A stretch of 64,000 nt of DNA, taken from contig CAYGGD010000001.1 in the NCBI GenBank assembly GCA_964349315.1, forward strand, positions 758 to 64,757, given 5' to 3'. This document shows, in pieces, positions 16,399-40,588 of the stretch. The notes under the pieces are model-generated. The model saw nothing but the letters and a program-made list of their open reading frames with translations, was not told the origin of the DNA and ran no database searches. The stretch comes from an uncultured Muribaculaceae bacterium. Lineage in GTDB: Bacteria > Bacteroidota > Bacteroidia > Bacteroidales > UBA932. The first letter of the stretch is position 1. The number at the start of each line of letters is the position of its first letter. The position numbers and the translations under genes were made by a program.

Positions 16399-16408
16399 AT
16401 CTCTATTA

Positions 16409-17341
16409 TTAACTCTGTGAAAATAAGATTTTTTGGCCAATTTTCCTTAATCCTGCTCTTCTAAATGGGTATGTGAGCATAAAAAAGAGAGAACCAAAAG
16501 GAGAGACAGCAAATATTACAGTATTAAGATAGTATTTAAACAACTTAAGACGAAAAGCTCTGCGGGGATCTCTGTACCCACCTCTTTTAATTACAAACTT
16601 TGCCCACTTTCCCCAAAGGCGATTCCCATTAGACTCTACAAAGTAGAGCCCCGGATGAAACTGAACTAAACCCCTTTCCACTATCTCTCCCTGCAGTGAA
16701 TTCCAGTTGCCGGAGGTTATTGCCTCAAAGATAACGGGAGCTATAGCTGCAACACTCAAGATATCTGCATCAGAAACCCCTGCCTCCGGAAGAAAACGAG
16801 AGGCCCCCTTTTGTCCCTTTATAAGCCAGCGAAACACAGTAAGAACTCCTATAAGATTGTTGTGTCTGTCCTCCAGAGCAATATTCCCGGTCCATCTGCA
16901 TCCATACTCCCTAAGTCTCTTACCAACACTTAAGTGGGCAGATATCCACATATTCCTGGAACCAACAACCGTGAGCACTATTTTTCCTTTGAGGTAGCTA
17001 CCGGTACTACTCTCCCCTAAAAAAGAGGAGAAGGGGATTGAAGGGGCAAGAAACCACGGCTGATAACCCAGAATAATAAGATCTGCATCTATAACATCAG
17101 AAAAATCGACAGGTTCTATCTCAACGGGAATTTCGAGTCTCGATTCAGGAAAGGATTCATAAAAATCCTGTTCACTCCACGGAAATCCAAAAGGGACTTT
17201 TGGTACTATATCTTTATATGTTACTCTGCAACCCATACTCTCAAGAGGTTTTGTCAATGAGTTGAGAATAGAGGTCAGTTGCCCTGTCTGAGAGTAGTGA
17301 AAAACGGCAATGTGCGGTTTTCTGGTATGGGTCGTTGTCAT
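16409..17341 (-). CDS. darA: DarA dialkylresorcinol condensing enzyme/aromatase (flavodoxin-like N-terminus)
   Basis: HYSQTGQL..PFPWS..FPES, YQPWFLAPSIP, RNMWISA, DRHNNL..TVFRWL; directly upstream of darB. Confidence 0.88.
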   Translation of the reverse strand: MTTTHTRKPHIAVFHYSQTGQLTSILNSLTKPLESMGCRVTYKDIVPKVPFGFPWSEQDFYESFPESRLEIPVEIEPVDFSDVIDADLIILGYQPWFLAPSIPFSSFLGESSTGSYLKGKIVLTVVGSRNMWISAHLSVGKRLREYGCRWTGNIALEDRHNNLIGVLTVFRWLIKGQKGASRFLPEAGVSDADILSVAAIAPVIFEAITSGNWNSLQGEIVERGLVQFHPGLYFVESNGNRLWGKWAKFVIKRGGYRDPRRAFRLKLFKYYLNTVIFAVSPFGSLFFMLTYPFRRAGLRKIGQKILFSQS

Positions 17342-17955
17342 AATTGAAACATTGAAGGTGATACTGCAGAGTTAAGTGATAATCCGGAGAATTTGTATAT
17401 TGTATAATCATTGCTCCTCTCCCATAGAGTAAGTTGCTCCAATGAGTAGTCTGAATAGTTTATAACCATCTCTATCCTGATATAAGGAGATTGAGTGTTA
17501 GTTCCCGAAGGTGTAATCTCTACTATATGTGTGTTATCCCTTAACGAGTACGATATAGTGTATCCGGAAGGAATAGACTTGATATCTCCACCTATACAGG
17601 CCTCCATAACGGCAGCAAGATCAGAAATCCCCTTTTGCGATTCAAGTGAAAATGTATTGGTTTTTCCGGCAGATAGTATATAGAGTTTAAGAGGTGTAAT
17701 AACAATTGACATCTCTTTTGGAGATGTGTAGTCAAATCTCATATTGCCACTTCTCTTATAATAGAAAAGACCACTCGACTCAACACTATCATTTAGAATT
17801 GTTATGAACTTTTTCTGAACAAAGTTTCCCGAAACCGACGAAACAGTTTTCGAGTGCTGTGCAAGTGCCAGAAAAAATTCCTTCTCAGATGATCCGTAGA
17901 TAAACCCTGATGAGAGCACAAGAGAGAGCATTATTATAAGCTTATTCATATTCAT
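17338..17955 (-). CDS. LolA-family periplasmic lipid carrier (cluster copy 2)
   Basis: Signal peptide; SGNFVQKKFI..SSGLFYYKRSGNMRFDYTSP, the LolA FxQ / G-x-F / RWxY pattern. Confidence 0.75.
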   Translation of the reverse strand: MNMNKLIIMLSLVLSSGFIYGSSEKEFFLALAQHSKTVSSVSGNFVQKKFITILNDSVESSGLFYYKRSGNMRFDYTSPKEMSIVITPLKLYILSAGKTNTFSLESQKGISDLAAVMEACIGGDIKSIPSGYTISYSLRDNTHIVEITPSGTNTQSPYIRIEMVINYSDYSLEQLTLWERSNDYTIYKFSGLSLNSAVSPSMFQL

Positions 17956-17963
17956 TTATTAAT

Positions 17964-19268
17964 CTAATCTGATTCACGCATATCTATAAACTTAAGGGGC
18001 TTTCTGCTTATCTCCGGTTGAATTGCTTTGGAGAGCAACTCCACCGGCTCAAACCTGATCTCCGGAGCAACCCTTATCCTGGCACGAAAATGTTCTGTAA
18101 TCATCTTCTCAAAAGAGAGCGAAGGATTAACCGCTCCTATCTTAATAAGAATACCATCTGTACCTATTGAGTTTGTATAGATATGTACCTGATAATTAAT
18201 CACCCCCTCAATGTTGTCCAGAATATCATAAAGAGCAGATGGATACAGAGTTGTGCCTTTGTATTTTATCATCTGGCCCTTTCTGCCAACTATTGGACTC
18301 AAACGTGTACTGTAACGCCCGCATCTGCACTGCTCATAAAAGGCCATACAAAGATCTCCGGTTTTAAATCTTACCAGAGGCATCCCTTCGACACCCAGAG
18401 TTGTGATGACAAGTTCTCCTGTCTCACCATCTTTAACTCTGTTTTCATTTTCGTCAAGTATTTCTATAACAACAAGATCGCTCTGATGATGCGCTCCGCA
18501 TAAGTATTCACACTCTGTAAAAGAGCTCTGCATTTCGGTAGAAGCGTAGGTAGAATGAAGTGTGATGTTCGGCCATTTTTGCATAATCTTTTTATTGAGA
18601 GTGTTTTGTGAAAGATCTACCTCCCTTAGTGGCTCTCCTATACAAATCGCTCTCTTTAGTGAAGAGGAGCTGTAATCAATACCGTTTTTCTCCGCAAACT
18701 CAGCCAATTTAATCAAAAAAGAGGGTACTACAATACAAGCAGATGGAGAGTTGCTCTTGATAGAGCTCCACTGAAGCTCCGGAATGCCATTCCCAACTCT
18801 TATTATTCCGGCTCCTAACTCTCTGGCTCCCAAAAAATAGGCAAGACCGGCCATAAATCTTTTATCAATTGTGGTCATTAGCTGAATAACATCTCCCGGC
18901 AAACAACCCGCAGTTGAGAAAGATATCTTTTCGTTGTATGCAAGTCTCTGCAAATCGCTCTCTGTGAGCATAAAATTTACTGGCTCTCCAAGTGTTCCGG
19001 ATGTTGTTACATAATCCATAACCCTCTCCCTTGGCACACATAAGAAATCGTTGTTATAAATCTGAAGATCCGACTTACATGTTGTTGGAATCTTTGTCAA
19101 ATCTTCAACTCCATTTATAGAATTGACATCAACTCCTGACTCCCTAAACAACCTTTTATAGTAGGGAGAGTTTAAAGATACATATTTAAGACTCTCTCTA
19201 AGGGATTCATCCTGAAAGCGTTTAATCTCTTCTATGCTTTTAAACTGAATCAAGGGATCTCTTTTCAT
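17964..19268 (-). CDS. Phenylacetate-CoA ligase (PaaK)-like aryl-acid adenylating enzyme
   Basis: TTSGTLGEP P-loop, YASTE, GELVITTLG..PLVRFKTGD, GTTLYP. Confidence 0.88.
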   Translation of the reverse strand: MKRDPLIQFKSIEEIKRFQDESLRESLKYVSLNSPYYKRLFRESGVDVNSINGVEDLTKIPTTCKSDLQIYNNDFLCVPRERVMDYVTTSGTLGEPVNFMLTESDLQRLAYNEKISFSTAGCLPGDVIQLMTTIDKRFMAGLAYFLGARELGAGIIRVGNGIPELQWSSIKSNSPSACIVVPSFLIKLAEFAEKNGIDYSSSSLKRAICIGEPLREVDLSQNTLNKKIMQKWPNITLHSTYASTEMQSSFTECEYLCGAHHQSDLVVIEILDENENRVKDGETGELVITTLGVEGMPLVRFKTGDLCMAFYEQCRCGRYSTRLSPIVGRKGQMIKYKGTTLYPSALYDILDNIEGVINYQVHIYTNSIGTDGILIKIGAVNPSLSFEKMITEHFRARIRVAPEIRFEPVELLSKAIQPEISRKPLKFIDMRESD

Positions 19269-20956
19269 CTCTTTATAGATTTTAACTTTTTTGCAATTAT
19301 CTCTCTTGTGGCAGGGTAGGGAATTTCTGATTCTAATGCCTGCCCATAATGTTTAGAAGCAAGTGCGGGTTTTCCTATTGCAAGATAGTAGTCGCCCAAT
19401 AACTCGTAAGTATAATAGTAGTGTGGGTTAGTTTTTAAAAAACTCTCTTTAACATCACTGTCAATCACTCTTTTCTCCTTAACGGCATCCCGGATTGATG
19501 TGGCTCTCTCCCTAAACGCTGTTACAAGTGGAACAATTGTAACTATGGCTGAAGAGTCTGCTTCAATAACAAGCTCTTCACTTAAGGCAGATAGAGGAGA
19601 TTTCTCCTGTGTATCTTTAGCCGAGAACAGTCTGCCCAAATCGTATGCCACCATCTTTCCAAGCTGCCAATCAGAAGAGCTCACCCACATAATTAAACTC
19701 TCCGGCTTAAATATCACTGCATGATGGGCAATAAACTGATTGACAGACATCTCATTGGTCAGGCCAATCTCCTTGTTTTCCAATCCTCTGTGATTACGAA
19801 GAGTGGCCGCAGCCTCCGCAGGAGTAACAGGAGTACTCTCTGAAATGAGCTGATTTAGTCTTTTATACCTGTATAATGAGTGACTCCCCTCGATGATTTC
19901 AATAGATTTTCTGTTTTTTGTATCGTTCAAAAACTCATCGGATTGAAAATGGTTGGTGGAAATAATTATATCTCCCTCAACCCTAAAGAGATGTGTGCCG
20001 CCCGGACTCTTCTCTATAATGGCTACCACCCCATCCTTCGCCGAACCAATCATAATAGATTCCGAAACAAATGCATCCATACTTCCGGCAATTTCAAATG
20101 CCTCATCTATTGTAGAAGCATATTGAAGAATCTCTCTTGCTATAATAGAGATAGGTGTTCTAGAAGCTGTCGGAGGCAGGGATTTTGCTGCATTAAGAGT
20201 TACAGTAAGGCCTGTCTCATTCATACCTGAAAGGACTCCAACCATACCAGCCCAGCTTATTGATGCAAAACGGTATCCCTTATCAGGGTATATAAAAGAG
20301 ACAACCTTCTCTTTTGCAAACTCGTCGCCAACATAAAAATCAAAATTTCTACCAATAAGTAGTGATGAGTCAGCTGTTTCTGCACCCCAAACACCAAAAG
20401 AGCTGCACCCAACCAGCATATACTCCTGCATGGCATGGCCAAGATCGTGGGCAGCATGGTAGTTTAGCTGCCTTTCATATGCGCTTCCAATAAAATCAAA
20501 CTCACTGCTGCAGGCAAATGAGGCGGCATAAATCTCCTGCTTATACTCCAGAGGAATGTTTGAAGAGAGATTTCTGTTAAAGATAATTGTAAAGTATTTT
20601 AGAAAGTTGAGATATCTCTCAGATGGTATCATTCGTCTTATCTCGTTAACAAAAGCTTTCTCTTGTCTGTACATCATCTCCCTGCACAACTCCCCCATTG
20701 CAAGACCCCTTTCTGATGGGTTACCCCTGAGATGCAGCTCCCACAGATCTCCAGGGCCCTTTATTAGCACAGACCTCCCAAAAGATTTATACTCATCAGT
20801 CTCCACCAACTCCGGAGTTGCCCCTGACAGAGCGAGTTCCGGAAGTGATCTGTCTGCTGTTTTATACAAAATCACCCCTGTTACAACAATAAGTGTCACA
20901 AATCCGGTAAAAATCAGTAACAGGTATTTTACAACTTTAATTAAAAAAAATTTCAT
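19265..20956 (-). CDS. Peptidase C45 family Ntn-hydrolase/acyltransferase, N-terminally membrane anchored
   Basis: LVG|CSSF Cys nucleophile, GRNFDF, SGMNETGL, TNHF; TPR-like C-terminus. Confidence 0.82.
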   Translation of the reverse strand: MKFFLIKVVKYLLLIFTGFVTLIVVTGVILYKTADRSLPELALSGATPELVETDEYKSFGRSVLIKGPGDLWELHLRGNPSERGLAMGELCREMMYRQEKAFVNEIRRMIPSERYLNFLKYFTIIFNRNLSSNIPLEYKQEIYAASFACSSEFDFIGSAYERQLNYHAAHDLGHAMQEYMLVGCSSFGVWGAETADSSLLIGRNFDFYVGDEFAKEKVVSFIYPDKGYRFASISWAGMVGVLSGMNETGLTVTLNAAKSLPPTASRTPISIIAREILQYASTIDEAFEIAGSMDAFVSESIMIGSAKDGVVAIIEKSPGGTHLFRVEGDIIISTNHFQSDEFLNDTKNRKSIEIIEGSHSLYRYKRLNQLISESTPVTPAEAAATLRNHRGLENKEIGLTNEMSVNQFIAHHAVIFKPESLIMWVSSSDWQLGKMVAYDLGRLFSAKDTQEKSPLSALSEELVIEADSSAIVTIVPLVTAFRERATSIRDAVKEKRVIDSDVKESFLKTNPHYYYTYELLGDYYLAIGKPALASKHYGQALESEIPYPATREIIAKKLKSIKR

Positions 20957-22428
20957 AGCTCTTCTGTAAGTGCATTTGTTCCTATTATTGCAGAACAGGT
21001 TAAAAGTGATGTTACAGTAACACCCATAACACCATGAAAATTGAGACTTTGCCCTGCCAGATAAAGATTTTGCACCTTGGTCCTGGGTGGAATTATTGAA
21101 GACAAAGGGCTGGAGAAATTTTTCATCAATCCATATGCACTCCCTTGGGGAGTTCCGAGATAGTCACGAAAAGTAAGCGGAGAGGCACTGCTGCTGTTTA
21201 GTATTGCTGCCTTAAGACCCGGCAGACGACTATCTGCAAGAGAGATCATCTCGTTACTTACTCTCTCCTTAAACTCTCTGTACTCCTCTCCTCTCATCTC
21301 CACAATCGTATCCGACCACTTCTCTACCTCACTCCACTCCATTTCTCTTACCAAAGTAATCACCTCTGCAAATCCCTGATCATCTACCGGTGGCTGGAAA
21401 GATGCAAGAATGCCATTTTTGAGGGGAGTAGGAGAGTTATTCGGGTTGGATTCGTCTCCAAAAATATAGTGGTTTTCATTCAAATATGGGAAGGTCTCCG
21501 GTTTCATAACCAGATACAGGCAAAAAAGGCCGGGGCTGTTTCTTAAAGAGTTAATCCTGTTACGGTAAACTTTTCTCAAATCGGAATCGGTCCCTAGCAT
21601 AGATATCGACTGGGCAGGATGACAAGTTGATATTACATACTTTCCTTCAACCACCTCTCCATTATCCAGCGTTACTCCCTTAACTGTTTTGTTGTCAATT
21701 ATTATAGATGTACACCTCACCTTTGTCCTAACAACACCTCCTCCCTCACGGATACGACATGTCAAGGCATCGGTAAGTCTGTCTGCCCCTCCACGGAACC
21801 TGTATGCCCCTTCCAGATAGGAGTTTGTGGTTATTGCGTGCAGATAATAAGGGGTCATTGACCTCTCTCCCGAATAGATCAGAGAGTGTCCTGTAAGAAT
21901 CTGTTGTAATCTTCTGTCCGGAATTGTTCTCTCAATCTCTTCAAATGCACTTACAGAGAGCATCTTCATAGCGCTCGCACTGATTCCTCCTCCGTGAATA
22001 GTGCTCTTTAACGAGTTGATACCATTCTCTTTTAGATTATCAGTATAAAGCTCTATCTCATTTTTCATATGTGGAAACTGTGCACTTAGCGATTGCGCAA
22101 AGTTCTCATGTCCCATTGCATATGAGTATTTCTTACCCAAAATATGAATATTTTCGAAACTCTCCTGGTTAAGCCTTACAAGGTCTATATCTTTCCAGAT
22201 ATCCAGATAGCGAAACACCTTATTAAGAAACATACCTTCATCCAAACTACCGACATAATGAATAGATGTGTCTATCTTTTTTCCGTTTCTATAAAAAGGC
22301 TGAAAAAAGCCACCTGTCCGGCCACTCTGCTCCATAACACATACACTCATCCCCTTTTTACAGAGAATAGCCCCACACTGCAGTCCTGCAAGTCCGCCAC
22401 CAATTATTATCACATCATATTTTCTCAT
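20953..22428 (-). CDS. FAD/NAD(P)-dependent oxidoreductase, phytoene desaturase/retinol saturase family
   Basis: IIIGGGLAGL Rossmann motif, DTSIHYVG, SPLTFRDY...GSAYG, NLYLAGQ...HGVMGV. Confidence 0.88.
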   Translation of the reverse strand: MRKYDVIIIGGGLAGLQCGAILCKKGMSVCVMEQSGRTGGFFQPFYRNGKKIDTSIHYVGSLDEGMFLNKVFRYLDIWKDIDLVRLNQESFENIHILGKKYSYAMGHENFAQSLSAQFPHMKNEIELYTDNLKENGINSLKSTIHGGGISASAMKMLSVSAFEEIERTIPDRRLQQILTGHSLIYSGERSMTPYYLHAITTNSYLEGAYRFRGGADRLTDALTCRIREGGGVVRTKVRCTSIIIDNKTVKGVTLDNGEVVEGKYVISTCHPAQSISMLGTDSDLRKVYRNRINSLRNSPGLFCLYLVMKPETFPYLNENHYIFGDESNPNNSPTPLKNGILASFQPPVDDQGFAEVITLVREMEWSEVEKWSDTIVEMRGEEYREFKERVSNEMISLADSRLPGLKAAILNSSSASPLTFRDYLGTPQGSAYGLMKNFSSPLSSIIPPRTKVQNLYLAGQSLNFHGVMGVTVTSLLTCSAIIGTNALTEEL

Positions 22429-29699: not shown

Positions 29700-30620
29700 C
29701 TATCTCTGAATTATCATCAGCGATGCTGCCTCGTTAAGATAACTGTTTATTATTAGTACATACTCTCCTATCTCTGAATTTGACAACAGATTTACTCCCC
29801 TCCAGAGTCCATAGGCAGCCGAGGTGGGATACTCTCCGCAGCAGAGTTTATAATACTCTGTATCTATTTTCATATCTTCGAAATAGCTGCATAAAGAGTC
29901 TCTCCCGCAAACAACTGCCCTCAATCGGCTAAACGATAGTCCACAGCTCTGCAGTAACTCTTCGCTTTTTTTAATAATCTCGTTATCAGATAAATTTCTC
30001 CTCAATATTTCCAACGCCACAATCTTTCCCATTGATCTCTCTGCTTTCGCAGGTGAAAGAACAAAAAAAGTAGATCCCTCTCCTCTGATATGTTTTCTCC
30101 ATATACCCATTCTATTAAGAAGATTCTCTTTAGTGGGTGTTAGCTCATCAAACCCACCAGCAAGGATTCGCTCTCTTCCCTCCACTGCAAGCATAGAGGC
30201 ATCAATAATTGCAGCTTCGAATGACCCTCCACCGTGTACAAATGTGTTGTTATAGTGGTTATCGCTCAATATAAGTGCAATCTGAGACCCAATCGTATTG
30301 GAGGTGCTCTGGATAAAGGATGCGGGATTAAGCATCCGCTCGTTGTTATCCAAAATAGAGATCAGAAACTTCTCTGTATCTGCAAGACAACCCCATCCTG
30401 TTGCGGTAACAATTGCATCAATTTTATTGTTCCCGGAACTCTCTAATGCCATTAGGGCAGATGATATTCCCATACGATTTATTCTGCTCATTCTTCTTCT
30501 TACTCCGGCATCAGGAATATAGAGCTTATAGTCCGGCTCCGGTTGCAAGAGTCTCTCCTGAGCTGAACCACTAAAATTTATAGTGGCCATACCATTAATA
30601 TAGAGATTCATGCCTTTCAT
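29700..30620 (-). CDS. Chain-length factor (non-catalytic ketosynthase partner)
   Basis: RRMSRINRMG, ATGWGCL, NPASFIQSTSNTIGSQIAL; no catalytic Cys motif; follows a KS. Confidence 0.85.
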   Translation of the reverse strand: MKGMNLYINGMATINFSGSAQERLLQPEPDYKLYIPDAGVRRRMSRINRMGISSALMALESSGNNKIDAIVTATGWGCLADTEKFLISILDNNERMLNPASFIQSTSNTIGSQIALILSDNHYNNTFVHGGGSFEAAIIDASMLAVEGRERILAGGFDELTPTKENLLNRMGIWRKHIRGEGSTFFVLSPAKAERSMGKIVALEILRRNLSDNEIIKKSEELLQSCGLSFSRLRAVVCGRDSLCSYFEDMKIDTEYYKLCCGEYPTSAAYGLWRGVNLLSNSEIGEYVLIINSYLNEAASLMIIQR

Positions 30621-31822
30621 ATTAAACTCCTTTTATCCTGTTTAAATATTATAGATGAGCAGTTTCCTCCAAAACCGAATGAGTTTGTCAGAACCGCCTT
30701 CATCCCCTCCATTTTTGTAACCTCGGTAACCGGAACCATTCCCGGAACCTCCTCGATACTCTCTTTAAAATTTAAATTAGGCCAATGGTATCCCTGAGTT
30801 AAGCTAAGAATAGCAAAGACAGACTCCACTCCTCCGGCAGCACCAAGCGTATGTCCGGTAAAACCCTTTGTAGAGCTAAAAGGGGGTATATCTCCGTTAA
30901 AGAGTCTGTTTATCGCTACTCCTTCCGAAGCGTCGTTGTTGGGAGTTCCGGTGCCGTGAACATTTATATAATTTATATCACTGATCTTTAAACCACTCAT
31001 CTCCAGAGCCCCACTCATTGCCATATACGATCCGGTGCCATCTGCAGAAGAGGCTGTTTGATGAAAAGCGTCGTTAGCATTGGCGTATCCTCCTATAAAA
31101 CAGTACCTTCGATGAGTCTTAACATTTGCAGAGTGAAGAAAAATATATCCCGCACCCTCTCCAAGATTGAGACCGCATCTGGAAGCATCAAAAGGGCGGC
31201 ATTGCTCTCTATCAAGAATACCCAAAGAGGAGAAGCCGTTAACGGTAAAACGGCATAATGAGTCGGTACCTCCGGCAATTACAGCGTCTAAAAGCCCGGC
31301 CTTAATCATCCTTGCCCCCATCATTATTGCATTGTTGGCAGATGAACAAGCTGTATTTATGGTGGTTACGAAACTCTCTATACCCAATTTTTCTGCGATA
31401 AACTGTGTTGATGCTCCACAATCGTGACCCATAAGTTGTCTTAATCTTCCTCCGTTGCTGTCTTTAATGTAATGACTGTAAAAGTTCTCACTAATATCCA
31501 TCCCCCCTACAGATGTTGCAGATATAAAACCTATCCTGAGTCCTTTAATGTTTACACCGGAATCTTCTAATGCCTCAGCAGCAGCGAGAAGCCCCAGCAA
31601 AGTGGTTCTGGAATACTCTCTGCCTCCGTTGAGCCCTGCCAAAACGGCAAGCTCCCGGTTGGAGTGATTTACCTCCCCAACTATAACATCGTGACTGGTC
31701 TCAAACAGCGTAAGAGGGCCAAGGGCTGTCTCTCCGGCCATAAGCCCGCGTAACTGCGCAGCTTTCCCGACTCCCATAGCTGTAATTGCCCCAAGGCCGC
31801 CAACATAAACTTCTTTAGTCAT
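30617..31822 (-). CDS. Beta-ketoacyl-ACP synthase (polyene KS-alpha)
   Basis: TACSS, HGTGT, GHTLGA triad; NSFGFGG. Confidence 0.93.
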   Translation of the reverse strand: MTKEVYVGGLGAITAMGVGKAAQLRGLMAGETALGPLTLFETSHDVIVGEVNHSNRELAVLAGLNGGREYSRTTLLGLLAAAEALEDSGVNIKGLRIGFISATSVGGMDISENFYSHYIKDSNGGRLRQLMGHDCGASTQFIAEKLGIESFVTTINTACSSANNAIMMGARMIKAGLLDAVIAGGTDSLCRFTVNGFSSLGILDREQCRPFDASRCGLNLGEGAGYIFLHSANVKTHRRYCFIGGYANANDAFHQTASSADGTGSYMAMSGALEMSGLKISDINYINVHGTGTPNNDASEGVAINRLFNGDIPPFSSTKGFTGHTLGAAGGVESVFAILSLTQGYHWPNLNFKESIEEVPGMVPVTEVTKMEGMKAVLTNSFGFGGNCSSIIFKQDKRSLI

Positions 31823-31823
31823 A

Positions 31824-33575
31824 TCAATCTCTTTTACAGAGTTTAAGATCTATATCATATCTCCCTTTAAAAAATTCACACCATCCAATAACAGCCACCT
31901 TAACTGTGCTGTCTCCTGCTAAAATCATAAGTTCTTCCATAGTCTCGCTCCTTCGCTCCGATGTTGTAACAAAAAAAGTATTCTCCCCTTGGAACTTAAA
32001 TCGAATTGCAGACTCTCCCATAAGTATATTGGGCAGAGTATATACAAATATTGCAGGACTAACACTAGTATCCCCTTTTGTCAATATCTCATTCTGGTGA
32101 CGGATATCGGTATCGAGTGATGAGGAGCTGTTCGCTATAAAGAATCCGTAATCAAAGGGATTTCTGTTCTCTTCCATCTCATAATCCTTCAACAGAGAAG
32201 CTGTTGCTATAACACCGGCTTTTGAGAGATTGTCCATTTTAAAAAACTTTATGTCTTTCATTTCAAGCTCTTTATACTTAGCCCTTATCACACTGTCAAA
32301 ATCTCCCTCTCCCTTTAAAACAAAACGAGAGAGCTGTTGCCACTCATTTTCTGAATCTCTCCTGCCTTTGCCATAATGGGTAGTTCCCTTGATAGAGGCA
32401 GACTCCTTTGCAAATACAATTGCCGCATTACATCCGCCAAACCCGGATGCACTCTTAAGGCACCTGCTTAACTCCATCGGAGCATCTTTTGATGTTACTT
32501 GTAGTTTCATCGGAACTCCCGGTTCTTGATACCCCATTGTACCCAGGAGCCGTGAGTTTCTTATCTGCCAAAAAGAGGCGACTGATTCAACAACTCCGGA
32601 GGCTCCGAGAGTATGCCCCCAATATGGTTTAAGGCTCTGTACGGGAACACTGTTTAACGACGCCAGATGGATTGCTTTTGACTCCATCTCATCGTTATAA
32701 GTTGTTGATGTTCCGTGAGCATTAATAAAACTAATGTGAGAGGCAGATAGTCGGGCGCACTCAAGAGCTCGCAGCATGGCTGTCCCAAGCCCGTCACCTG
32801 TGCGTGAGGGGGCAGAGAGGTGGTTAGCGTCGTTAGTTACTGCTCCTCCCTCTATTACAATAGGATCAAAATCTTTTGCATACTCTCTTTTATTGGATAG
32901 AATAACAACTCCTACCGCCTCGCCCAAAGAGAGACCATCTCTTGATGCGTCATAAGGTCTGCAGATAGTCGGACTAATCGAGTGAAAGGCCTCAAAACCA
33001 CTTACAACAAACTTTGTCATTTCATCGGCTCCAACCACTATCACATTGTCGCAGCGAGAGTTTTCAATTAACCGCGCAGCTGTAATCAAGGCATTTACCC
33101 CTGATATACATGCATTTGAAAGAACAAGAGGAGTGCTTTTTAATCCAAGGTAGCGGTTAATACGCTCTGCCGACTCTCCTGGAAAGAGCTCCGCAGGCAA
33201 ATCTGCTTCGCCATCCTTAATAAGAGAGATATTTGCCTTTGTTGTGGCATATACTAATCTTGTGTTCTCTTTAATAAGAGTATCCAGTGACACTCCGCAT
33301 ACAAGTGCTGCATCTTCAACAGCAAAGATAATTCGCCTCTCAAGAGTTGTAAACGAAAGTAATAGCTCATTAACTATACGGGCATCCTCTGATACTCTTG
33401 CTCCGTTAAAGGGAACAGAATATATATCAGAATTATCTACCCTCTTTATTGCAGACACATTGTCTGATACCCTATTCATATTCTCCTTGGTGGAGAACCC
33501 CAGAGGTGAGTATATGGAGTCTGCAACTACATAAACCCTCTCTCTTACTTTATCAGTTTCCATTTTTTCTGCCAT
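31824..33575 (-). CDS. Ketosynthase fused to a C-terminal CLF-like domain
   Basis: NACIS, HGTST, GHTLGA, SASGFGG in the first ~390 aa; C-terminal FFKMDNLSK..SPAIFVYTLPNI CLF-like domain. Confidence 0.87.
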   Translation of the reverse strand: MAEKMETDKVRERVYVVADSIYSPLGFSTKENMNRVSDNVSAIKRVDNSDIYSVPFNGARVSEDARIVNELLLSFTTLERRIIFAVEDAALVCGVSLDTLIKENTRLVYATTKANISLIKDGEADLPAELFPGESAERINRYLGLKSTPLVLSNACISGVNALITAARLIENSRCDNVIVVGADEMTKFVVSGFEAFHSISPTICRPYDASRDGLSLGEAVGVVILSNKREYAKDFDPIVIEGGAVTNDANHLSAPSRTGDGLGTAMLRALECARLSASHISFINAHGTSTTYNDEMESKAIHLASLNSVPVQSLKPYWGHTLGASGVVESVASFWQIRNSRLLGTMGYQEPGVPMKLQVTSKDAPMELSRCLKSASGFGGCNAAIVFAKESASIKGTTHYGKGRRDSENEWQQLSRFVLKGEGDFDSVIRAKYKELEMKDIKFFKMDNLSKAGVIATASLLKDYEMEENRNPFDYGFFIANSSSSLDTDIRHQNEILTKGDTSVSPAIFVYTLPNILMGESAIRFKFQGENTFFVTTSERRSETMEELMILAGDSTVKVAVIGWCEFFKGRYDIDLKLCKRD

Positions 33576-33991
33576 TCTGTATAAAACTCAGGATTATTCC
33601 ACTCCAGCTCACCATTCGGGTTGAGAAAAACCTGCAGAGAGTAGCCGGTAGCAACAAGAGTGCTGTCACTCTCTCTGTAGATATCATATTCGAAGCGTAT
33701 TTTTGCCGCCGGTAAAAAAATATACTTTGTCTCCACAACTGCAATTTCACCGTATGTGAGCGGTTTTAGATAACTACAGTGCAGATCCACAATAGGGGCT
33801 GTGTAACCTGCTCCATAGATATCCAGATACCCAATTCCAAATCTCCTTCCAAAGGCCTCTCTGCCATCTTCAAAATACTTTACATAGTTCCCATGCCAGA
33901 CAATATTCATTGAGTCCACATCGGAAAAACGAACCTTAACGCTCTCCCTGTGAACAAGTGCCGCCTCTCTTAAACCTCTTCTCTTTCTCAT
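33545..33991 (-). CDS. Acyl-CoA/ACP thioesterase (4-HBT/YbgC hotdog fold)
   Basis: VRFSDVDSMNIVWHGNYVKYFEDGRE. Confidence 0.9.
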   Translation of the reverse strand: MRKRRGLREAALVHRESVKVRFSDVDSMNIVWHGNYVKYFEDGREAFGRRFGIGYLDIYGAGYTAPIVDLHCSYLKPLTYGEIAVVETKYIFLPAAKIRFEYDIYRESDSTLVATGYSLQVFLNPNGELEWNNPEFYTEWQKKWKLIK

Positions 33992-34007: not shown

Positions 34008-34463
34008 CTATTTTTGTAAAAAAATCTTCAGTTCGGCTGAGGCAGCTTTTCTCTCTCCACAATAGAGAACAGCCTCAACAAGAGATATATCCCCAAACTC
34101 TCCCAACTCTCTTATATGAGTAATAATCTCTTTACCCACAAGTGGAAACTCTGTTATCACAAACTTAGATACCGCACCAATGAAACCCACAGGTACACTC
34201 TCACCTCTGCTTATAAATTTATATCCTGTTACTGCAGCTGCAGATTGAGCCATATTCTCTATTACTCCGGGTTCGGTCAAACAAATATCATCAGCTCCGG
34301 AAACAGACTTGGTAAAGAGTGTTTCTGCAACCGGAGTAAAACCGGTAACCTGATTACCATCTATCTCTCCGTAGTAACTCTCCACAAAAACAAAAGGCGC
34401 TCTCTGGGGAATCAGCTTCAATATCTCCTCCCCGGTAACTATGGCTTTCTCAAGTACTCCCAT
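34008..34463 (-). CDS. Hotdog-fold dehydratase partner (ApeP-like)
   Basis: LIPQRAPFVFV, VIENMAQSAAA, VGFIGAV. Confidence 0.8.
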   Translation of the reverse strand: MGVLEKAIVTGEEILKLIPQRAPFVFVESYYGEIDGNQVTGFTPVAETLFTKSVSGADDICLTEPGVIENMAQSAAAVTGYKFISRGESVPVGFIGAVSKFVITEFPLVGKEIITHIRELGEFGDISLVEAVLYCGERKAASAELKIFLQK

Positions 34464-35833
34464 ATTAAACCTTTTTTCTTTTTTAAAACTCTGATTCTGT
34501 CTATATCTGCCGATAAAGGGTCATCCGGAAAAATCCATGCTTTTCCGGTCTCTTTTGCCATCTCCCTGCACCTCTCCAGCGAAAAGTCCTTAGCCAGATA
34601 GTAGGTGGGATCGAGAAGCGAGTCTTCTGCAGATATCGTTCCATCCTCAATTGCCATTCTGTGCAATGGCGTACCCGGATATATCCTCATACCAATATAT
34701 GGGAAAAATACCGAATATCGAATTTTTTTTGAGTTCTCCATTGTCTCTCTGAGCGTCTTCTCTGTCTCACCAATTCCTCCTAATATAAGAAAATGAGCAT
34801 AAAAAATATTGTATTTAAACGCCCTGTGTGAGTTGAGCAACACATCTTCTATGGTAAAATTTTTGCCGTAACGCTGCATCTGTTCTGAACACAGAGACTC
34901 TGTTCCAAATTCTATGTGCTTAAGCCCTGCTCTTTGAAAGAGTGCAAGCAGATCGTCGGTTAGGTTATGGGGAGAGAAGTATGCACCCCAATTGATTTTT
35001 ATCCCGCTTTTAATGATTTTCTCTGCAAGTTGGGCATTGTAACTGTTGTGTATATTAAACACCGAATCTGTAAAAAAGACATAGTTTATCCCCTTATCTC
35101 TGCACAGCCTCTCAAGCGTACCAACAATAAGGTCTGTATCGAGAGTTCTCACACATCTTCCGTCAATTATCGGGTATGAGCAATAAATACAGTTATAGCA
35201 GCACCCTCTTTTTGTCTGAATATTCAACATACCACTACTCTCCCAGTAGAAGTCCGATAGCTTCTCGTCAAACTGCAAATTGAGGTTGTTGAGATATTTG
35301 GTATGAGGATTAACTACCAAACCTCCTGTCTCTTTAGATATAAGCCCCTCTATTTTACTATAATCATTAATCTTATCCTGGCTGCCATCTGCTACATAAT
35401 TGTTAAGGGCAAGTATCAACTGGCGCAGACTCTCCTCCCCCTCCCCTGTAATTCCATAATCGGGGCTCAGCAGTTGAAATAACTTTTCGGGAAAGATTGA
35501 GAAGCCGGCACCACCCATTATTACAGGCGCGTTTGTGCTTGCTCTCACAGCATCCATTATTTCTGAGTATCCGGGAATAAAACTAGTCATGTCCAGAGAG
35601 TTGGCTCCATCGATATTTCTTATCGAAACTCCAACCCAGTCCGGCGAATACTCCTTTATCTCAGTCTCAAGCTCAGAAACCGTTATCAGGTTCATATCTG
35701 ATATCTTAACATCCAGCCAATCTATTTTACTTAATAGATATGTCTTAAGATAAGAGAGGCCCAGGGGATACACCGGACAGGGGTCTGCAAGTCTGTTTGC
35801 AGATATCAGCAGAAATTTTTTCTCTCTTCTCAT
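34439..35833 (-). CDS. B12-binding radical SAM protein (lipid-biosynthesis-associated class)
   Basis: N-terminal cobalamin-binding domain (PVYPLGLSYL, GVSIRNID), CCYNCIYC containing CxxxCxxC, FGTES, RIYPGTPL. ATG 35833 overlaps the upstream TGA (ATGA). Confidence 0.9.
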   Translation of the reverse strand: MRREKKFLLISANRLADPCPVYPLGLSYLKTYLLSKIDWLDVKISDMNLITVSELETEIKEYSPDWVGVSIRNIDGANSLDMTSFIPGYSEIMDAVRASTNAPVIMGGAGFSIFPEKLFQLLSPDYGITGEGEESLRQLILALNNYVADGSQDKINDYSKIEGLISKETGGLVVNPHTKYLNNLNLQFDEKLSDFYWESSGMLNIQTKRGCCYNCIYCSYPIIDGRCVRTLDTDLIVGTLERLCRDKGINYVFFTDSVFNIHNSYNAQLAEKIIKSGIKINWGAYFSPHNLTDDLLALFQRAGLKHIEFGTESLCSEQMQRYGKNFTIEDVLLNSHRAFKYNIFYAHFLILGGIGETEKTLRETMENSKKIRYSVFFPYIGMRIYPGTPLHRMAIEDGTISAEDSLLDPTYYLAKDFSLERCREMAKETGKAWIFPDDPLSADIDRIRVLKKKKGLIWEYLRKP

Positions 35834-36729
35834 TTCCAAAACTTATAATAATTATACCACTGCTCAGGTGCTGTTTTTACAACTCTCTCAAGACCTTTTA
35901 CATAAGTTTCCAAAATAGTGTTCTCCCTTTTTTCAGATGCAAATGCTGACTCCTTTTTGCAGAGCTCGAAATGGAACAGATATCTCTTGTAACCTGTCCT
36001 GATTGCATAATAGAAAACAACAGGTACATCAAAACGGGCTGCAATTACAAACGGACCAATGGGAAACATAGCTTTTGATCCCATAAAATCCATCTCTGCA
36101 CCTCTGCCTCCGGTGTTAATCCGGTCTCCTTGAATAGCAATATACGCTCCCTCTTCAAGAGCATCTCTTATCTCAAAGATGTGTGAGAGAGAATCCTCCT
36201 TAACAGGAATCACAGTAAAAGTTTCTACCCTTTTTTGAGCCTCAAGTATCTGTTTGATCTTCTGATACTCAGAATCTACCATCACTACCCGCATCTTCTT
36301 TCCGTATTTACCAAAATATGGAGCGCCAATTTCCCAGTTTCCAAAATGGGCACCTAAAATAACAGCACCTGTGCTGCTGTTAAGTACATCTTTGACCTCG
36401 CCGGGTTCGTGAAAATCAAATTTAAACTGCTCATACAATCCGGCAGAAGCAGCCGTCTTGTCTATTAGAGCAACCCCTAAATTAAAAAAGCTTTTATAGA
36501 TGAAAACCAATGAAGAGAGAACACCTTTTCCAAGAATCTTACGTGAATAGAACCAGACAGATGCAGTTGCTCCGGGGGCGAAAGGGATATAATAGATAAC
36601 GACAAATGACAACAGCACATATGCCATTGTCACCCCTAAATACTTGATGATAAATACGAATGTGAGATATCCGGCGGCTCCTCCCCTCGATTTACCACTC
36701 CACTCATTTTGGGGTCTCCTTTTTTTCAT
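35830..36729 (-). CDS. LpxL/LPLAT-family acyltransferase
   Basis: WSGKSRGG N-terminus, GAHFGNWE (H-x4-E), IQGDR, FMGSKAMFPIGPF, PEQWYNYY. Confidence 0.88.
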   Translation of the reverse strand: MKKRRPQNEWSGKSRGGAAGYLTFVFIIKYLGVTMAYVLLSFVVIYYIPFAPGATASVWFYSRKILGKGVLSSLVFIYKSFFNLGVALIDKTAASAGLYEQFKFDFHEPGEVKDVLNSSTGAVILGAHFGNWEIGAPYFGKYGKKMRVVMVDSEYQKIKQILEAQKRVETFTVIPVKEDSLSHIFEIRDALEEGAYIAIQGDRINTGGRGAEMDFMGSKAMFPIGPFVIAARFDVPVVFYYAIRTGYKRYLFHFELCKKESAFASEKRENTILETYVKGLERVVKTAPEQWYNYYKFWK

Positions 36730-36967
36730 CTAAGCGAGAATTGATAAAGTGATAAAAGTCATTAAACGTTTTAATGCCTGTAAAATCCTTTGCAACAACA
36801 GTAAATCCGAAATTATGCTCAATAAGAACCACCATATCTACCAGATCAAGACTATCCAGATTAAGTGTTTCCATTAAAGGTGCATCAGGTTGAATCATAT
36901 CTGCATCAACCTCAAATTCATCTGCAAGGACTGTGTTGATTTTTTGAATAAGTGCGGTATCAATCAT
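36704..36967 (-). CDS. Acyl carrier protein (cluster ACP 1)
   Basis: 87 aa, acidic, LNLDSLDLVD motif. Confidence 0.92.
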   Translation of the reverse strand: MIDTALIQKINTVLADEFEVDADMIQPDAPLMETLNLDSLDLVDMVVLIEHNFGFTVVAKDFTGIKTFNDFYHFINSRLDEKKETPK

Positions 36968-36973
36968 AATATT

Positions 36974-38206
36974 TTAATAACTATTTGTATCAATATCTTT
37001 TAGAATCAGTGTAGAGTTTGTGCCCCCAAAACCAAAAGAATTAGAGAGTAAATGATCAAACTTAAAGTCGACAAGTTTATTTGATATTCTGAGTCTTGAT
37101 GAGGCTTCGTCAGCTTTGTTATAGTTTATTGTAGGAGCAATAAATGAGTTTTTCATCATAAGAACAGAATAGACAATCTCGCTTGCACCTGCCATCCACA
37201 TCTCATGTCCGGTAAGACTTTTGGTTGATCCTACATATGGTTTGTGATCTCCGAAGACTTCGTCAATTGCCAGAGCTTCGTTAAAATCACCAATCGGAGT
37301 CGATGTCGCATGGGCATTGATATAACCAATATCTTCTCTCCTGACTCCCGCCAAATCGAGAGCCATTAATAAAGATCGCTTTGGACCTTCAATATTTGGC
37401 ACAGAAATATGGTCTCCGTTTGACGAAAAACCATAAGACAATATCTCGGCTAAAATTGGAGCCCCCCTCTTTATCGCAGATTCGTAACTCTCCAGAATTA
37501 CTGTTGCAGCTCCTCCGCTGGGAACAAGTCCATCTCTGTCGGCGTCAAAGGGCCTTGATGCCTCCAAAGGAGAGTCGTTTCTTACCGAGAAGGCGTTCAA
37601 ACCATCAAAACTGGAAACAGCATACTTGTTCACCTCCTGAGCTCCTCCGCAAATAATACACTCCTGAAGACCATTCTTTATCATCATAAAAGCCATTCCT
37701 ATTGAGTGTGAACCACTTGCACAAGCTCCTGCAATAGTCAGGTTAATACCCTTAAGTCTGAATATTACAGAAAGATTCATTGTTACTGTCGAGTTCATAG
37801 ACTGAAAAACAGAGCCCGACCCAACCAATGTAGTATTCTTCTTTTCTCTTATTAAATCGACCCCCTCAACTACGGCAAGAGCACTGCTGTCATTCCCGTA
37901 CAAAATTCCAACCTCACGACTATCCAGAAAATTATCATTTATGCCCGCATTATTAAGTGCCTCTGCTGTTGCAACATACGCATAGGCCGCCTCCTGTGAC
38001 ATTGATATTCTCTTCCGTCTGTCAAGCACCTTTGTAAGATTAGGTTTGGGCAGAATACCCGTAAGGGATGAGCGAAATCCAAACTCAGCTCTCTCCGGAT
38101 CTATTCCTATTCCGGATTTTCCCTGTTTAAGAGAATCAAGAACATCATTTAAATTTTGTCCGATACATGAGTAGATTCCCATGCCTGTAATAACCACTCT
38201 GGCCAT
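36974..38206 (-). CDS. Beta-ketoacyl-ACP synthase (FabB/FabF-like)
   Basis: GACASG, HATST, TGHEMW, NSFGFGG. Confidence 0.92.
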   Translation of the reverse strand: MARVVITGMGIYSCIGQNLNDVLDSLKQGKSGIGIDPERAEFGFRSSLTGILPKPNLTKVLDRRKRISMSQEAAYAYVATAEALNNAGINDNFLDSREVGILYGNDSSALAVVEGVDLIREKKNTTLVGSGSVFQSMNSTVTMNLSVIFRLKGINLTIAGACASGSHSIGMAFMMIKNGLQECIICGGAQEVNKYAVSSFDGLNAFSVRNDSPLEASRPFDADRDGLVPSGGAATVILESYESAIKRGAPILAEILSYGFSSNGDHISVPNIEGPKRSLLMALDLAGVRREDIGYINAHATSTPIGDFNEALAIDEVFGDHKPYVGSTKSLTGHEMWMAGASEIVYSVLMMKNSFIAPTINYNKADEASSRLRISNKLVDFKFDHLLSNSFGFGGTNSTLILKDIDTNSY

Positions 38207-38234: not shown

Positions 38235-38963
38235 TTATGTATAAAGTCCTCCGTTTACAGATATCACCTCTCCTGTAATATAGGATGCCTCCTTTGAGGC
38301 AAGGAAAGCAACAACAGCCGCAACCTCTTCCGGCTTTCCAAATCTCTCCATAGGTATCTGCTTTCTGAGTACAGACTCATCCAGGTCGCTTGTCATATCA
38401 CTAATGATAAACCCTGGTGCCACTGCATTCACAGTAATACCCTTCTTTGCCACCTCTTGCGCTAACGCTTTTGTTGCAGCAATGACCCCCCCTTTGGATG
38501 CGGAGTAGTTTGTCTGTCCGGGAAGCCCCTTTATTCCTGATAGTGAAACTATATTTATTATCCTTCCAAATCTCTTTACAATCATATCCTTCAGAAGTGG
38601 TCTGGTAACATAGAACATTCCGCTAAGGTTTGTCTCAATAACACTGTGCCACTCAGACTCCTCCATCCACATCATCAGGTTATCACTGCGTATTCCTGCA
38701 TTGTTCACAACAATTTCAATATACTCTCCGGGGTTAGCCTCGCTCCACCCCTTTATAGCAGCCTCGGTTTGTTCTCTGTCCGAAACATCAAATTTAACGA
38801 GAGTTGATAAACCACCCGCTTGAGAAATAAGCTCAGCGCACTCCTCTGCAGCAATATCGTTAGATTTGTAGTTAATAAGAGTGTGATAACCCATAGCGGC
38901 GAGCTTTATAGCAACCGCCCTTCCAATACCTCTGCCTGCACCCGTAACTAAAGCGTATTTCAT
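38235..38963 (-). CDS. fabG: 3-oxoacyl-ACP reductase (cluster ketoreductase)
   Basis: TGAGRGIG, VNNAG, NYSASK (YxxxK), NAVAPG. Confidence 0.92.
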   Translation of the reverse strand: MKYALVTGAGRGIGRAVAIKLAAMGYHTLINYKSNDIAAEECAELISQAGGLSTLVKFDVSDREQTEAAIKGWSEANPGEYIEIVVNNAGIRSDNLMMWMEESEWHSVIETNLSGMFYVTRPLLKDMIVKRFGRIINIVSLSGIKGLPGQTNYSASKGGVIAATKALAQEVAKKGITVNAVAPGFIISDMTSDLDESVLRKQIPMERFGKPEEVAAVVAFLASKEASYITGEVISVNGGLYT

Positions 38964-38978: not shown

Positions 38979-40502
38979 TTATTTTGTATTTTTCAAGAAA
39001 TTTACAATAGCTTCAATCTCTTTATATTTAGGAGTATCGTCAGAAAATTTCGGAAAAAATTCTCTAATGGCAAAGTAGATCTCCTGACTCTCTTGTGAGA
39101 TTTCATTCTCTATGCCGAGATAATCTATCGCCTGTAAGAGCGCCATAAAGTGAATTGCCATAACCTGATACCCATTCTCAATTACTTTGGCGGCCATAAG
39201 TGCCGAATTTGTACCCATACTTACGATATCCTGGTTATCGTTATTGTTTGGGATTGAGTGGACATAAACAGAGTTTGAGAGAGTCTGAGACTCTGCTGTG
39301 GTGGATGTTGCAGTAAATTGTGCTGCCTGTAGCCCATAGTTAAGACCAAGTACCCCAAGATTTACAAACGGGGGTAGAATCCCGTTTATTTTATCGTGAA
39401 ACAGATAGTTTAGCTGCCTTTCGGTTAACATGGTAAGCTTTGTAATTGCAATTTTTAGCTTATCCATCTCAAAACTGACATAATCGCCGTGAAAATTACC
39501 TCCGTGATAGATATTTTGAGTTTCAGGGTCAACAACCGGATTGTCACATACACTGTTAAACTCCCTCTCAACCACGTCTTTAGCATTGCAAAGAGTATCA
39601 TAAACCGGCCCCAGAATCTGAGGAACGCATCTTAATGAGTAGTATCCCTGTACCTTTTCTTTAAAGATTCGGCTATTGTTACTCCCGTTATAAAGATCAG
39701 ATTCTCTTTTCTTTAATCTGGAAGATGTAGCGAATATCTCTCTCATCTGAGCAGCGATATAGAGCTGACCACTATGTGGCCTGCTATCCATAAGCGGTTC
39801 AGAAACAAAATCGTCATAGGAAAAGGCAATCTCATTCATCATCGCAGATGCCAGGGTTGCCCACTTAATTAGTTGTTGAGAGAAGTGGATATTTACAGCC
39901 GCTATTCCGGTCATTACACTGGTTCCGTTGGCAATGGCGAGCCCCTCTCTTATGTAAATCTCAAGTGGTTTTAAATTGCATTCCTTCAACACCTCTTTGG
40001 TCTCTCTCAACTCCCCTTTATAAAATACTTCTCCCTCTCCAATAAGTGCAAGCCCTATATGTGCCATCTGAACCAAATCTCCACTTGCCCCCACTCCTCC
40101 GTGCTCTGGAATCAGAGGACAGATATCATTGTTAAGGAAAGCAACAAGGAGATCACAAAGTTCTTTGTTCACCCCGGACTTACCCTTGAGAAAGTTTGAA
40201 AGTCTTGCAAGCATGGCAGCCCGAACATAAACAAGAGGTAACGCGTCTCCTGCACCACAAGCATGAGAACGAATAATATTGTACTGAAGGGATTTGAGTT
40301 GCTCATCCTCAACACGAAACTGGGCCATTGGTCCAAATCCGGTATTAATACCGTAAATCACCTTCTTCTTTGAGAAACTCTCGAGAAAATCATAACACTC
40401 AACAACCTTTTTCCGGACAGATTTATCAATAGAGATTCTCTCTATATTCAAAACAATCGAAGTTATATCTTGATAAGATAAATTAAGGCCTAATTCTATC
40501 AC
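38979..40502 (-). CDS. MIO-dependent aromatic amino acid ammonia-lyase, probable tyrosine ammonia-lyase (FlxA/FjTAL-like)
   Basis: YGINTGFG, GVGASGD (ASG forms MIO), NGTS, YSLRC, HGGNFHG, NNDNQDIVSMG. First gene of the cluster. GTG 40502 preferred because the longer ORF runs through the promoter and terminator. Confidence 0.88.
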   Translation of the reverse strand: MIELGLNLSYQDITSIVLNIERISIDKSVRKKVVECYDFLESFSKKKVIYGINTGFGPMAQFRVEDEQLKSLQYNIIRSHACGAGDALPLVYVRAAMLARLSNFLKGKSGVNKELCDLLVAFLNNDICPLIPEHGGVGASGDLVQMAHIGLALIGEGEVFYKGELRETKEVLKECNLKPLEIYIREGLAIANGTSVMTGIAAVNIHFSQQLIKWATLASAMMNEIAFSYDDFVSEPLMDSRPHSGQLYIAAQMREIFATSSRLKKRESDLYNGSNNSRIFKEKVQGYYSLRCVPQILGPVYDTLCNAKDVVEREFNSVCDNPVVDPETQNIYHGGNFHGDYVSFEMDKLKIAITKLTMLTERQLNYLFHDKINGILPPFVNLGVLGLNYGLQAAQFTATSTTAESQTLSNSVYVHSIPNNNDNQDIVSMGTNSALMAAKVIENGYQVMAIHFMALLQAIDYLGIENEISQESQEIYFAIREFFPKFSDDTPKYKEIEAIVNFLKNTK

Positions 40503-40526
40503 AATTAAAATTTTCCAAACAATTCG

Positions 40527-40555
40527 CAAAGATAGAAAAAAAAATGCCCTGACAA
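40527..40555 (-). promoter_or_regulatory. Promoter of the APE-DAR cluster
   Basis: TTG (40555-40553), 18-nt spacer, TATCTTTG (40534-40527), 24 nt before GTG 40502. Confidence 0.65.
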
Positions 40556-40588
40556 CATTATGTTTCCAGTACAAATGTATTCAGGGCA
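40536..40588 (-). terminator. Intrinsic terminator downstream of the 40612-41067 gene
   Basis: Minus strand: TGCCCTGAATACATT...AATGTTGTCAGGGCA stem (15 bp, 2 mismatches) followed by 9 T. Confidence 0.75.

Follow-up and report, generated by a model that had tools for sequence, protein, structure and literature searches.

A B12-binding radical SAM gene alternates with the methyltransferase gene FlxJ in one slot of Bacteroidales flexirubin-type clusters

The 64,000-nucleotide stretch analysed here (the window), from contig CAYGGD010000001.1 of an uncultured Muribaculaceae bacterium, carries on its minus strand a gene for a B12-binding radical S-adenosylmethionine (SAM) enzyme of the TIGR04072 family (34439-35833; hereafter rSAM), which lies in the core of a flexirubin-type gene cluster. 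In the window's order, this gene and FlxJ, a gene for a class-I methyltransferase, occupy the same slot of such clusters as alternatives. The pattern is most simply explained if the two enzymes act at one and the same pathway step and add an identical or equivalent decoration. The specific reading that we favour, and to which we give an even chance, is that rSAM would be a cobalamin-dependent C-methylase of the aryl head group, standing in for FlxJ in the same slot. Both the family, as a named entity, and the flexirubin cluster type were known; what is new is the repeated in-slot exchange of rSAM with FlxJ.

The exchange is seen in 151 genomes of the window's order, nearly all of different genera, in which FlxA, rSAM and FlxJ were searched genome-wide (the genome samples used throughout hold one genome per species or genus, metagenome-assembled genomes (MAGs) included). 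FlxA scores above its cut-off in 38 of the 151, and these 38 divide into 14 with rSAM and 24 with FlxJ, none having both and none having neither. The other 113 genomes, negative for FlxA, include one with rSAM and three with FlxJ, so that 14 of the 15 rSAM-positive genomes are also FlxA-positive. Two genomes of a single genus fall on opposite sides, one carrying FlxJ (G452) and the other rSAM (G595). FlxJ (NF053543), which is found in some classical clusters and is distantly like BchU, has no candidate anywhere in the window's own genome by profile search of an assembly of 2.0 Mb in 204 contigs that is 90.7% complete. An initial test, in which FlxJ was sought within 10 kb on either side of rSAM and found at 0 of 80 loci, was insufficient because FlxJ can lie far from FlxA, and whole-genome searches replaced it. 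The phylum-wide sample (23 FlxA-positive genomes: one with rSAM, six with FlxJ, 16 with neither) is uninformative for the exchange; its 22 FlxA-positive genomes from outside the order comprise none with rSAM, six with FlxJ and 16 with neither, and tailoring of the head group seems, from these gene counts, to be obligatory only in the window's order.

The two genes also share one position. The order FlxA-FlxB-ketosynthase (KS)-acyl carrier protein (ACP)-acyltransferase (AT)-rSAM-FabZ-like dehydratase (DH)-thioesterase (TE)-KS recurs in about 70 of the best 80 species genomes, and the acyltransferase gene adjoins rSAM in 72 of 81 loci. When the 36 other FlxA regions of the order sample were retrieved and their slot contents compared, AT-FlxJ-DH was found in 13 loci and AT-rSAM-DH in seven loci as well as in the window. 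The FlxJ-type order, FlxA-FlxB-KS-ACP-AT-FlxJ-DH-TE-KS, is identical to the rSAM type but for the slot gene, and both FlxJ and rSAM abut or overlap the FabZ-like gene that follows. The slot was seen with FlxJ or with rSAM and with no further gene type, or, outside the order, empty; classical clusters of the phylum's other orders have no rSAM, and their FabZ-like gene comes immediately after the acyltransferase gene.

The states of the slot interleave on trees of the genes around it. On the FlxA tree there are seven changes between rSAM and FlxJ (bootstrap range 7-8), at least four of them forced by well-supported branches, and on a flank tree built from the KS, the acyltransferase and the FabZ-like protein (851 columns) there are six, again with at least four on supported branches. 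Independent contrasts on the FlxA tree, numbering from four (supported) to seven (all branches), are all reciprocal; a sign test restricted to the four supported pairs gives p 0.125, a sample at which significance is unreachable. The trees are unrooted, so the order in which rSAM and FlxJ appeared cannot be read from them, and related genomes are not independent. On these trees the slot has switched at least four and probably 6-7 times. An earlier note on this DNA had suggested that rSAM may replace the polar methyltransferase of aerobic producers. The replacement is strongly backed by the 14/24/0/0 distribution, the common slot and the repeated switches. The aerobic framing did not survive: FlxJ-type clusters are the majority (24 of 38) within the same order, and since FlxJ is thus common in that anaerobic order the division is not a simple one between aerobes and anaerobes; a contrast with aerobic producers also fails because a SAM methyltransferase needs no O2.

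Membership of rSAM in TIGR04072 (rSAM_ladder_B12), and with it in the class B radical SAM enzymes, was checked by hidden Markov model (HMM) search as the earlier note had envisaged. The match is full-length, 374.4 bits against a cut-off of 360 (E 6.2e-112), with residues 6-461 aligned to positions 1-441 of the 443 in the model; a TIGR04072 profile search of the genome's contigs gives it 372 bits. Relatives from the order score 392-434 bits, which places the window's protein at the low edge of the family. Other TIGR04072-like matches in the genome are weak, and the one on contig C55 was rejected as MiaB. The second-best HMM for rSAM is BzaD (TIGR04385; 195.5 bits, E 1.8e-57, over nearly the whole length), with the other families below 110 bits; membership in BzaD itself was dismissed, the score lying far under the cut-off of 450. 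The reaction assigned to BzaD is methylation of a carbon of an aromatic benzimidazole ring, ortho to an oxygen substituent. The full name of TIGR04072 is 'lipid biosynthesis B12-binding/radical SAM protein', and the family was named for candidate ladderane clusters of anammox bacteria (PMC2649909, PMC13459092, PMC10139942). The setting of rSAM is that of the family, a lipid cluster resembling type II fatty acid synthase with ACP, KS and FabZ-like DH.

Of the protein-database candidates that were scored, 5025 are homologues of rSAM at E<=1e-20, and those that carry a name are mostly from Bacteroidales MAGs; when one genome of each species was scanned, at least 590 stretches proved to encode a relative. 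The best 80 of these, analysed for context, come from Rikenellaceae, Alistipes, Muribaculaceae, Prevotellaceae, Dysgonomonadaceae, Paludibacteraceae, Marinilabiliales and unnamed Bacteroidales, and include the complete genome of Bacteroidales bacterium CF. The closest relatives by rSAM protein are Bacteroidales bacterium records at 93% and 76% identity. With thousands of homologues and the same neighbours in about 70 of 80 genomes, the open reading frame (ORF) is real, far beyond chance. Two loci (L064, L072) belong to records labelled Thiohalospira sp. and uncultured Hyphomicrobiales and carry Bacteroidales-type flexirubin clusters with rSAM; as these taxon labels are implausible, binning errors are suggested, and the loci are probably mis-binned contigs in public MAGs. 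Nine rSAM-type genomes have a second, more distant rSAM paralogue elsewhere, at 305-350 bits and so below the cut-off.

The gene itself is intact and tightly packed between its neighbours (Table 1). Translation is set to start at the ATG at 35833, in agreement with the starts of homologues in the alignment; a TTG at 35839, two codons upstream, is a less likely alternative. The stop codon, at 34439-34441, lies inside the ORF of the FabZ-like protein, and the overlap between the two genes is found at identical length in another locus (L106). The AlphaFold model has pLDDT 84 and pTM 0.85, and in 17 homologues of 53-88% identity the cofactor-binding residues are held fixed: C211, C215 and C218 of the cluster motif are all invariant, as are the motif G68-x-S70-x-R72 together with N73 and D75, and likewise GG107-108 and G130-E-G-E133 of the cobalamin (Cbl) domain, which align with TsrM. 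Position 258, Val in rSAM, is Ile or Leu in some homologues. The B12-binding domain, the CxxxCxxC motif, the ATGA coupling to the acyltransferase gene and the overlap with a dehydratase gene, all described in the earlier note, were each found, the last as a neighbour that is FabZ-like by fold. The best relative in the PDB by profile is TsrM (6WTE/6WTF, E 1.6e-36), which is also the best Foldseek match of the model (E 2.9e-29, TM 0.75), followed by MgmA (E 2.3e-21), AprD4, OxsB, CysS and TokK. By its sequence motifs, of which the downstream Cbl-binding, GG and GE motifs of class B enzymes are defined in PMC9204698, and by its fold, rSAM resembles the class B methyltransferases.

Table 1 Features of the rSAM gene and of the surrounding cluster (positions in the window)
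Feature	Position	Strand	Basis
B12-binding radical SAM gene (rSAM), TIGR04072 family	34439..35833	-	464 aa; HMM, Pfam, AlphaFold model
Cobalamin-binding Rossmann domain, residues 21-139	35417..35773	-	PF02310, E 3.8e-12; aligns with TsrM Cbl domain, residues 4-158
G68-x-S70-x-R72, 'downstream Cbl-binding motif', Arg at lower cobalt face	35618..35632	-	Aligns with TsrM Gly65-x-Thr67-x-Arg69
Radical SAM core, residues 207-366	34736..35215	-	PF04055, E 6.6e-16
CxxxCxxC [4Fe-4S] motif, C211-x3-C215-x2-C218	35180..35203	-	Read directly from sequence
'GGE-motif' position D256-S257-V258	35060..35068	-	Aligns with TsrM D271-S272-E273
ATGA start/stop overlap, rSAM ATG with acyltransferase TGA	35830..35833	-	Read from sequence
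25-nt overlap, rSAM 3' end with FabZ-like gene	34439..34463	-	ORF coordinates
FlxA tyrosine ammonia-lyase	38979..40574	-	NF053541, 832.9 bits vs 700; model aligns from residue 33, true start probably internal
FlxB ketoreductase	38235..38963	-	NF053542, 390.7 bits vs 340
Ketosynthase KS410	36974..38206	-	FabB/FabF models, E 2.4e-115
Acyl carrier protein	36704..36967	-	NCBIfam ACP models, E 1.7e-16
LpxL/LPLAT-type acyltransferase, 299 aa, 5' neighbour of slot	35830..36729	-	PF03279 (lipid A biosynthesis acyltransferase), E 1.2e-16
FabZ-fold hotdog protein, 3' neighbour of slot	34008..34463	-	PDB profile match 8AYD, Foldseek FabZ
Thioesterase, KS583 (KS + C-terminal domain), KS401, KS-like chain-length-factor-type protein	29700..33991	-	Pfam, NCBIfam
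MMPL exporter-PlsC acyltransferase-class-I methyltransferase fusion, 1280 aa	22430..26272	-	PF03176; PF01553 residues 891-999; PF13847 residues 1107-1223
Distal half: CrtI-like flavoprotein, C45 acyltransferase, FlxY ligase, LolA2, DarA-position ORF, DarB, DarG, DarH, ABC exporter	11755..22428	-	NCBIfam

In the reaction that we favour, rSAM would act on a flexirubin-type pigment lipid of the outer membrane, tailoring its aryl-polyene half by passing a SAM-derived methyl group, via methylcobalamin, to the 4-hydroxyphenyl head group, the target being a ring carbon ortho to the phenol. Both methylation as the reaction and the ring carbon as its target are what we infer, like every statement on function here, from sequence, predicted structure and distribution, the methyl transfer solely from the exchange with FlxJ. 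The chemistry may be like that of TsrM, in which Arg69 lies beneath the cobalt, a placement believed to promote the heterolytic transfer of methyl groups to nucleophilic carbons (PMC9204698), so that in rSAM the corresponding Arg would favour such transfer to an electron-rich sp2 carbon. In TsrM, Glu273 ligates the unique iron in SAM's place and makes the enzyme non-radical (PMC9204698); since this Glu is Val258 in rSAM, SAM can presumably bind the Fe-S cluster, which looks free to bind and cleave it, and reductive cleavage would be possible. A TsrM-type non-radical methylase was therefore set aside as a description of rSAM, R72 being invariant but the Glu ligand absent. Ring methylation fits the protein better than the methyl branching or cyclisation of the chain that the earlier note had proposed, because TsrM, its nearest relative in fold and sequence, and BzaD, its nearest by HMM, act on aromatic sp2 carbons; branching and cyclisation found no support. 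The product of FlxJ is presumed to be the methionine-derived ring methyl of flexirubin: in Chitinophaga this methyl derives from methionine, and one ring hydrogen is lost as it is added (PMC3992019).

Several points weigh against head-group methylation by rSAM. No member of TIGR04072 has been characterised and no product is known from any rSAM-type cluster, while FlxJ in turn owes its presumed role to annotation and to the logic of the cluster. Because polar methyltransferases work without oxygen, it is not obvious what selection would favour the exchange. Without the TsrM Glu, rSAM may carry out true radical chemistry, and such chemistry is difficult to square with methylation at an aromatic C-H. 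Two different decorations that exclude each other would give the same either/or pattern. Finally, five of 50 further rSAM-bearing genomes also hold a FlxJ homologue. Each of the five has a single FlxA, and the two genes never lie in the same core operon: three have rSAM in the slot and, elsewhere, an orphan FlxJ homologue that has no gene of the cluster closer than ~8 kb; a fourth has a classical cluster with FlxJ at the far end, and its orphan rSAM is on a separate contig; in the fifth, FlxA and rSAM are 30 kb apart on opposite strands, and FlxJ is on another contig. Some of these records bear taxon labels that are implausible (Thiohalospira, Hyphomicrobiales) and may be mis-binned. The rule is accordingly 'never both in one core operon', rather than 'never both in one genome'.

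If the two cluster types instead make different products, rSAM would differ from FlxJ in the site or the extent of methylation, acting for example at a non-nucleophilic ring position, at the alpha-carbon of a growing acyl-ACP to give a methyl-branched polyene, or iteratively to give ethyl or isopropyl groups. The typical targets of class B methylation are unactivated sp3 carbons, which are sometimes methylated iteratively (PMC9204698), and TokK and CysS are among the fold matches; the cluster site lacking the TsrM Glu would permit formation of a 5'-deoxyadenosyl radical, and rSAM sits within the chain-building core, between the ACP and acyltransferase genes and the dehydratase gene. A strict one-or-other pattern in one slot over at least four switches fits equivalence best, however, and the closest relatives act on aromatic sp2 carbons, so we consider methylation elsewhere unlikely. 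The same low standing is given to a non-methylating enzyme, one that would form C-C bonds by radical chemistry, rearrange or cyclise an ACP-bound polyene, the alternation with FlxJ then marking a hot spot of swappable tailoring genes. The family was named for candidate ladderane clusters, where such a role has long been proposed (PMC2649909, PMC13459092, PMC10139942), the neighbouring hotdog protein has the anammox amxFabZ as its best PDB relative, a CrtI/PDH-like flavoprotein is present here as in the anammox cluster, and class B enzymes that are not methylases are known, such as BchE, OxsB and HpnJ. Yet the slot has never been seen with a gene type other than FlxJ or rSAM; moreover, 0 of the 38 FlxA-positive order genomes lack both genes, which argues for one shared requirement, and the top fold and sequence matches are methylases.

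The boldest version of the radical chemistry, in which C-C bonding, cyclisation or iterative alkylation on an ACP-bound aryl-polyene would make the products of anaerobic Bacteroidales rSAM clusters a structurally new class of outer-membrane lipid, strikes us as less likely again; if true, the same chemistry would explain the role of TIGR04072 in the anammox 'ladderane' clusters. That rSAM is a decaying or functionless passenger is practically excluded: nothing was found in favour of it beyond a score barely above the family cut-off, and against it stand the intact frame, the invariant cofactor motifs, the sequence identity kept across many families and the translational coupling on both sides.

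Judged by its genes, the region from 11755 to 40574 is a single minus-strand flexirubin-type aryl-polyene plus dialkylresorcinol cluster of about 30 kb, which bears out the earlier reading of rSAM as part of a polyene assembly operon. FlxA, FlxB, FlxY, the dialkylresorcinol genes and LolA2/LolB2 together place it, by profile search, in the flexirubin type. Besides the genes of Table 1 it encodes a polysaccharide deacetylase, a LolA2 (168.5 bits vs 125), a LolB2 (80.9 bits vs a cut-off of 60) and a dehydratase-glycosyltransferase fusion. In the distal half, the FlxY ligase scores 671 bits against a cut-off of 520, DarH 421 bits against 300, and the second LolA2 127 bits; DarB, at 535.9 bits, passes the StlD/DarB subfamily cut-off (450) and falls slightly short of the DarB exception cut-off (550), and DarG scores 124 against 70 on DarG_fam and 133 on flexirubin_DarG, below the cut-off of 170 of the latter. 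The distal half and the whole 30-kb cluster are syntenic with the window in three genomes (L100-L102).

The FabZ-like ORF that follows rSAM is without a Pfam match. Searched against the PDB, a profile built from its family matches FabZ dehydratases, best of all the anammox amxFabZ (8AYD, E 2e-10), and in Foldseek the protein's model (pLDDT 92) aligns with FabZ structures at TM 0.75-0.80. The Glu of the central helix is kept, and the canonical GHFP stretch with the catalytic His of FabZ aligns to a gap. The dehydratase of the earlier note thus stands as to fold, by profile and model, but not as to the canonical His stretch, and the protein may be a non-catalytic or atypical partner subunit.

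The class-I methyltransferase fused to the MMPL exporter was considered as a substitute for FlxJ and rejected. It is found in three of five FlxJ-type and four of five rSAM-type genomes, and because it occurs in both cluster types it is taken to have a separate function. The triple fusion of MMPL, PlsC and methyltransferase parts is conserved in the same three syntenic genomes, and classical clusters have the MMPL part only. In one FlxJ-type genome (G551, C1:639691-640383) the MMPL-acyltransferase-methyltransferase fusion is read through one in-frame TGA. Elsewhere in the cluster, KS583 (31824-33575, minus strand) ends in a C-terminal domain of ~190 aa that in many clusters is a separate ORF of ~200-220 aa, for example in L091, L092, L104 and L121. 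The gene for a homologue of the second carrier protein, ACP2 (11473-11715, minus strand, 53% identity), is placed at the cluster's far end here and between the two ketosynthase genes in most other clusters. Just 5' of FlxA is a gene for an alternative-oxidase-like di-iron protein of 218 aa (41612-42268, minus strand; PF01786, E 2.8e-7), which is beside the cluster in the closest relative (L008) too, at 91% identity. The assembly's only riboswitch match is a cobalamin riboswitch (70 bits) at G000:C55:34-218 (L143), followed by a TonB-dependent receptor gene; because the predicted riboswitch precedes this gene in the same genome, uptake of corrinoids is plausible.

The literature search found no paper linking flexirubin to radical SAM enzymes and none naming TIGR04072, and the papers found to join aryl polyenes and radical SAM were surveys of biosynthetic gene clusters only. 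In reviews up to 2026 the sole role proposed for the family is that of ladderane catalyst, and for 15 years it has been cited as the candidate cyclobutane-forming ladderane enzyme, a proposal that could not be tested since anammox bacteria are without genetics and the enzyme resists expression (PMC10139942). The FlxJ slot exchange gives this uncharacterised family its first testable job: it predicts the same +14 Da ring methylation, which is falsifiable, and it moves the question to Bacteroidales lineages with cultured relatives (Alistipes, Muribaculaceae, Rikenellaceae). Should methylation of the head group prove true, a cobalamin radical SAM enzyme would have taken over from a class-I methyltransferase in a clear instance of non-orthologous displacement, and the result would urge caution about the ladderane assignment of the family; should it prove false, the product would be a new lipid. 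Either way, flexirubin-type lipids are widespread in this gut- and sediment-dwelling order and apparently always tailored at the head group (38 of 38).

Among known enzymes, the closest comparator is TsrM, the cobalamin-dependent tryptophan C2-methyltransferase of thiostrepton biosynthesis, whose substrate offers an electron-rich aromatic sp2 carbon as is proposed for rSAM. The two share the G-x-S/T-x-R motif with its Arg under the cobalt, and the GG and GE motifs are kept; they differ in sequence (~21-23% identity), in length (464 aa vs 575, with a shorter C-terminal domain) and in the replacement of the iron-ligating Glu273 by Val258. BzaD belongs to the biosynthesis of the B12 lower ligand, a pathway and gene context unlike those of rSAM. 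With the anammox TIGR04072 clusters rSAM has in common its two-domain build and neighbours of the same kinds, ACP, FabF-like KS, FabZ-like DH and CrtI/PDH-like flavoprotein, whereas its cluster, unlike the ladderane type, starts from tyrosine (FlxA/FlxY) and carries dialkylresorcinol genes. FlxJ, the strict alternative to rSAM in 38 genomes, has the identical slot between the acyltransferase and FabZ-like genes but an unrelated fold and mechanism, the class-I polar transfer of a methyl group from SAM without metal cofactors. Its analogue in proteobacterial aryl-polyene clusters is ApeB, a class-I enzyme assigned to methylation of the aryl-polyene head group (PMC8253772). The flexirubin clusters of Chitinophaga pinensis and Flavobacterium johnsoniae (PMC3992019) resemble that of the window in their core genes and in a nearly identical order, from FlxA to Lol-like/MMPL export and DarA/B; they differ in being without rSAM, the acyltransferase gene being followed directly by the DH gene, or FlxJ lying elsewhere.

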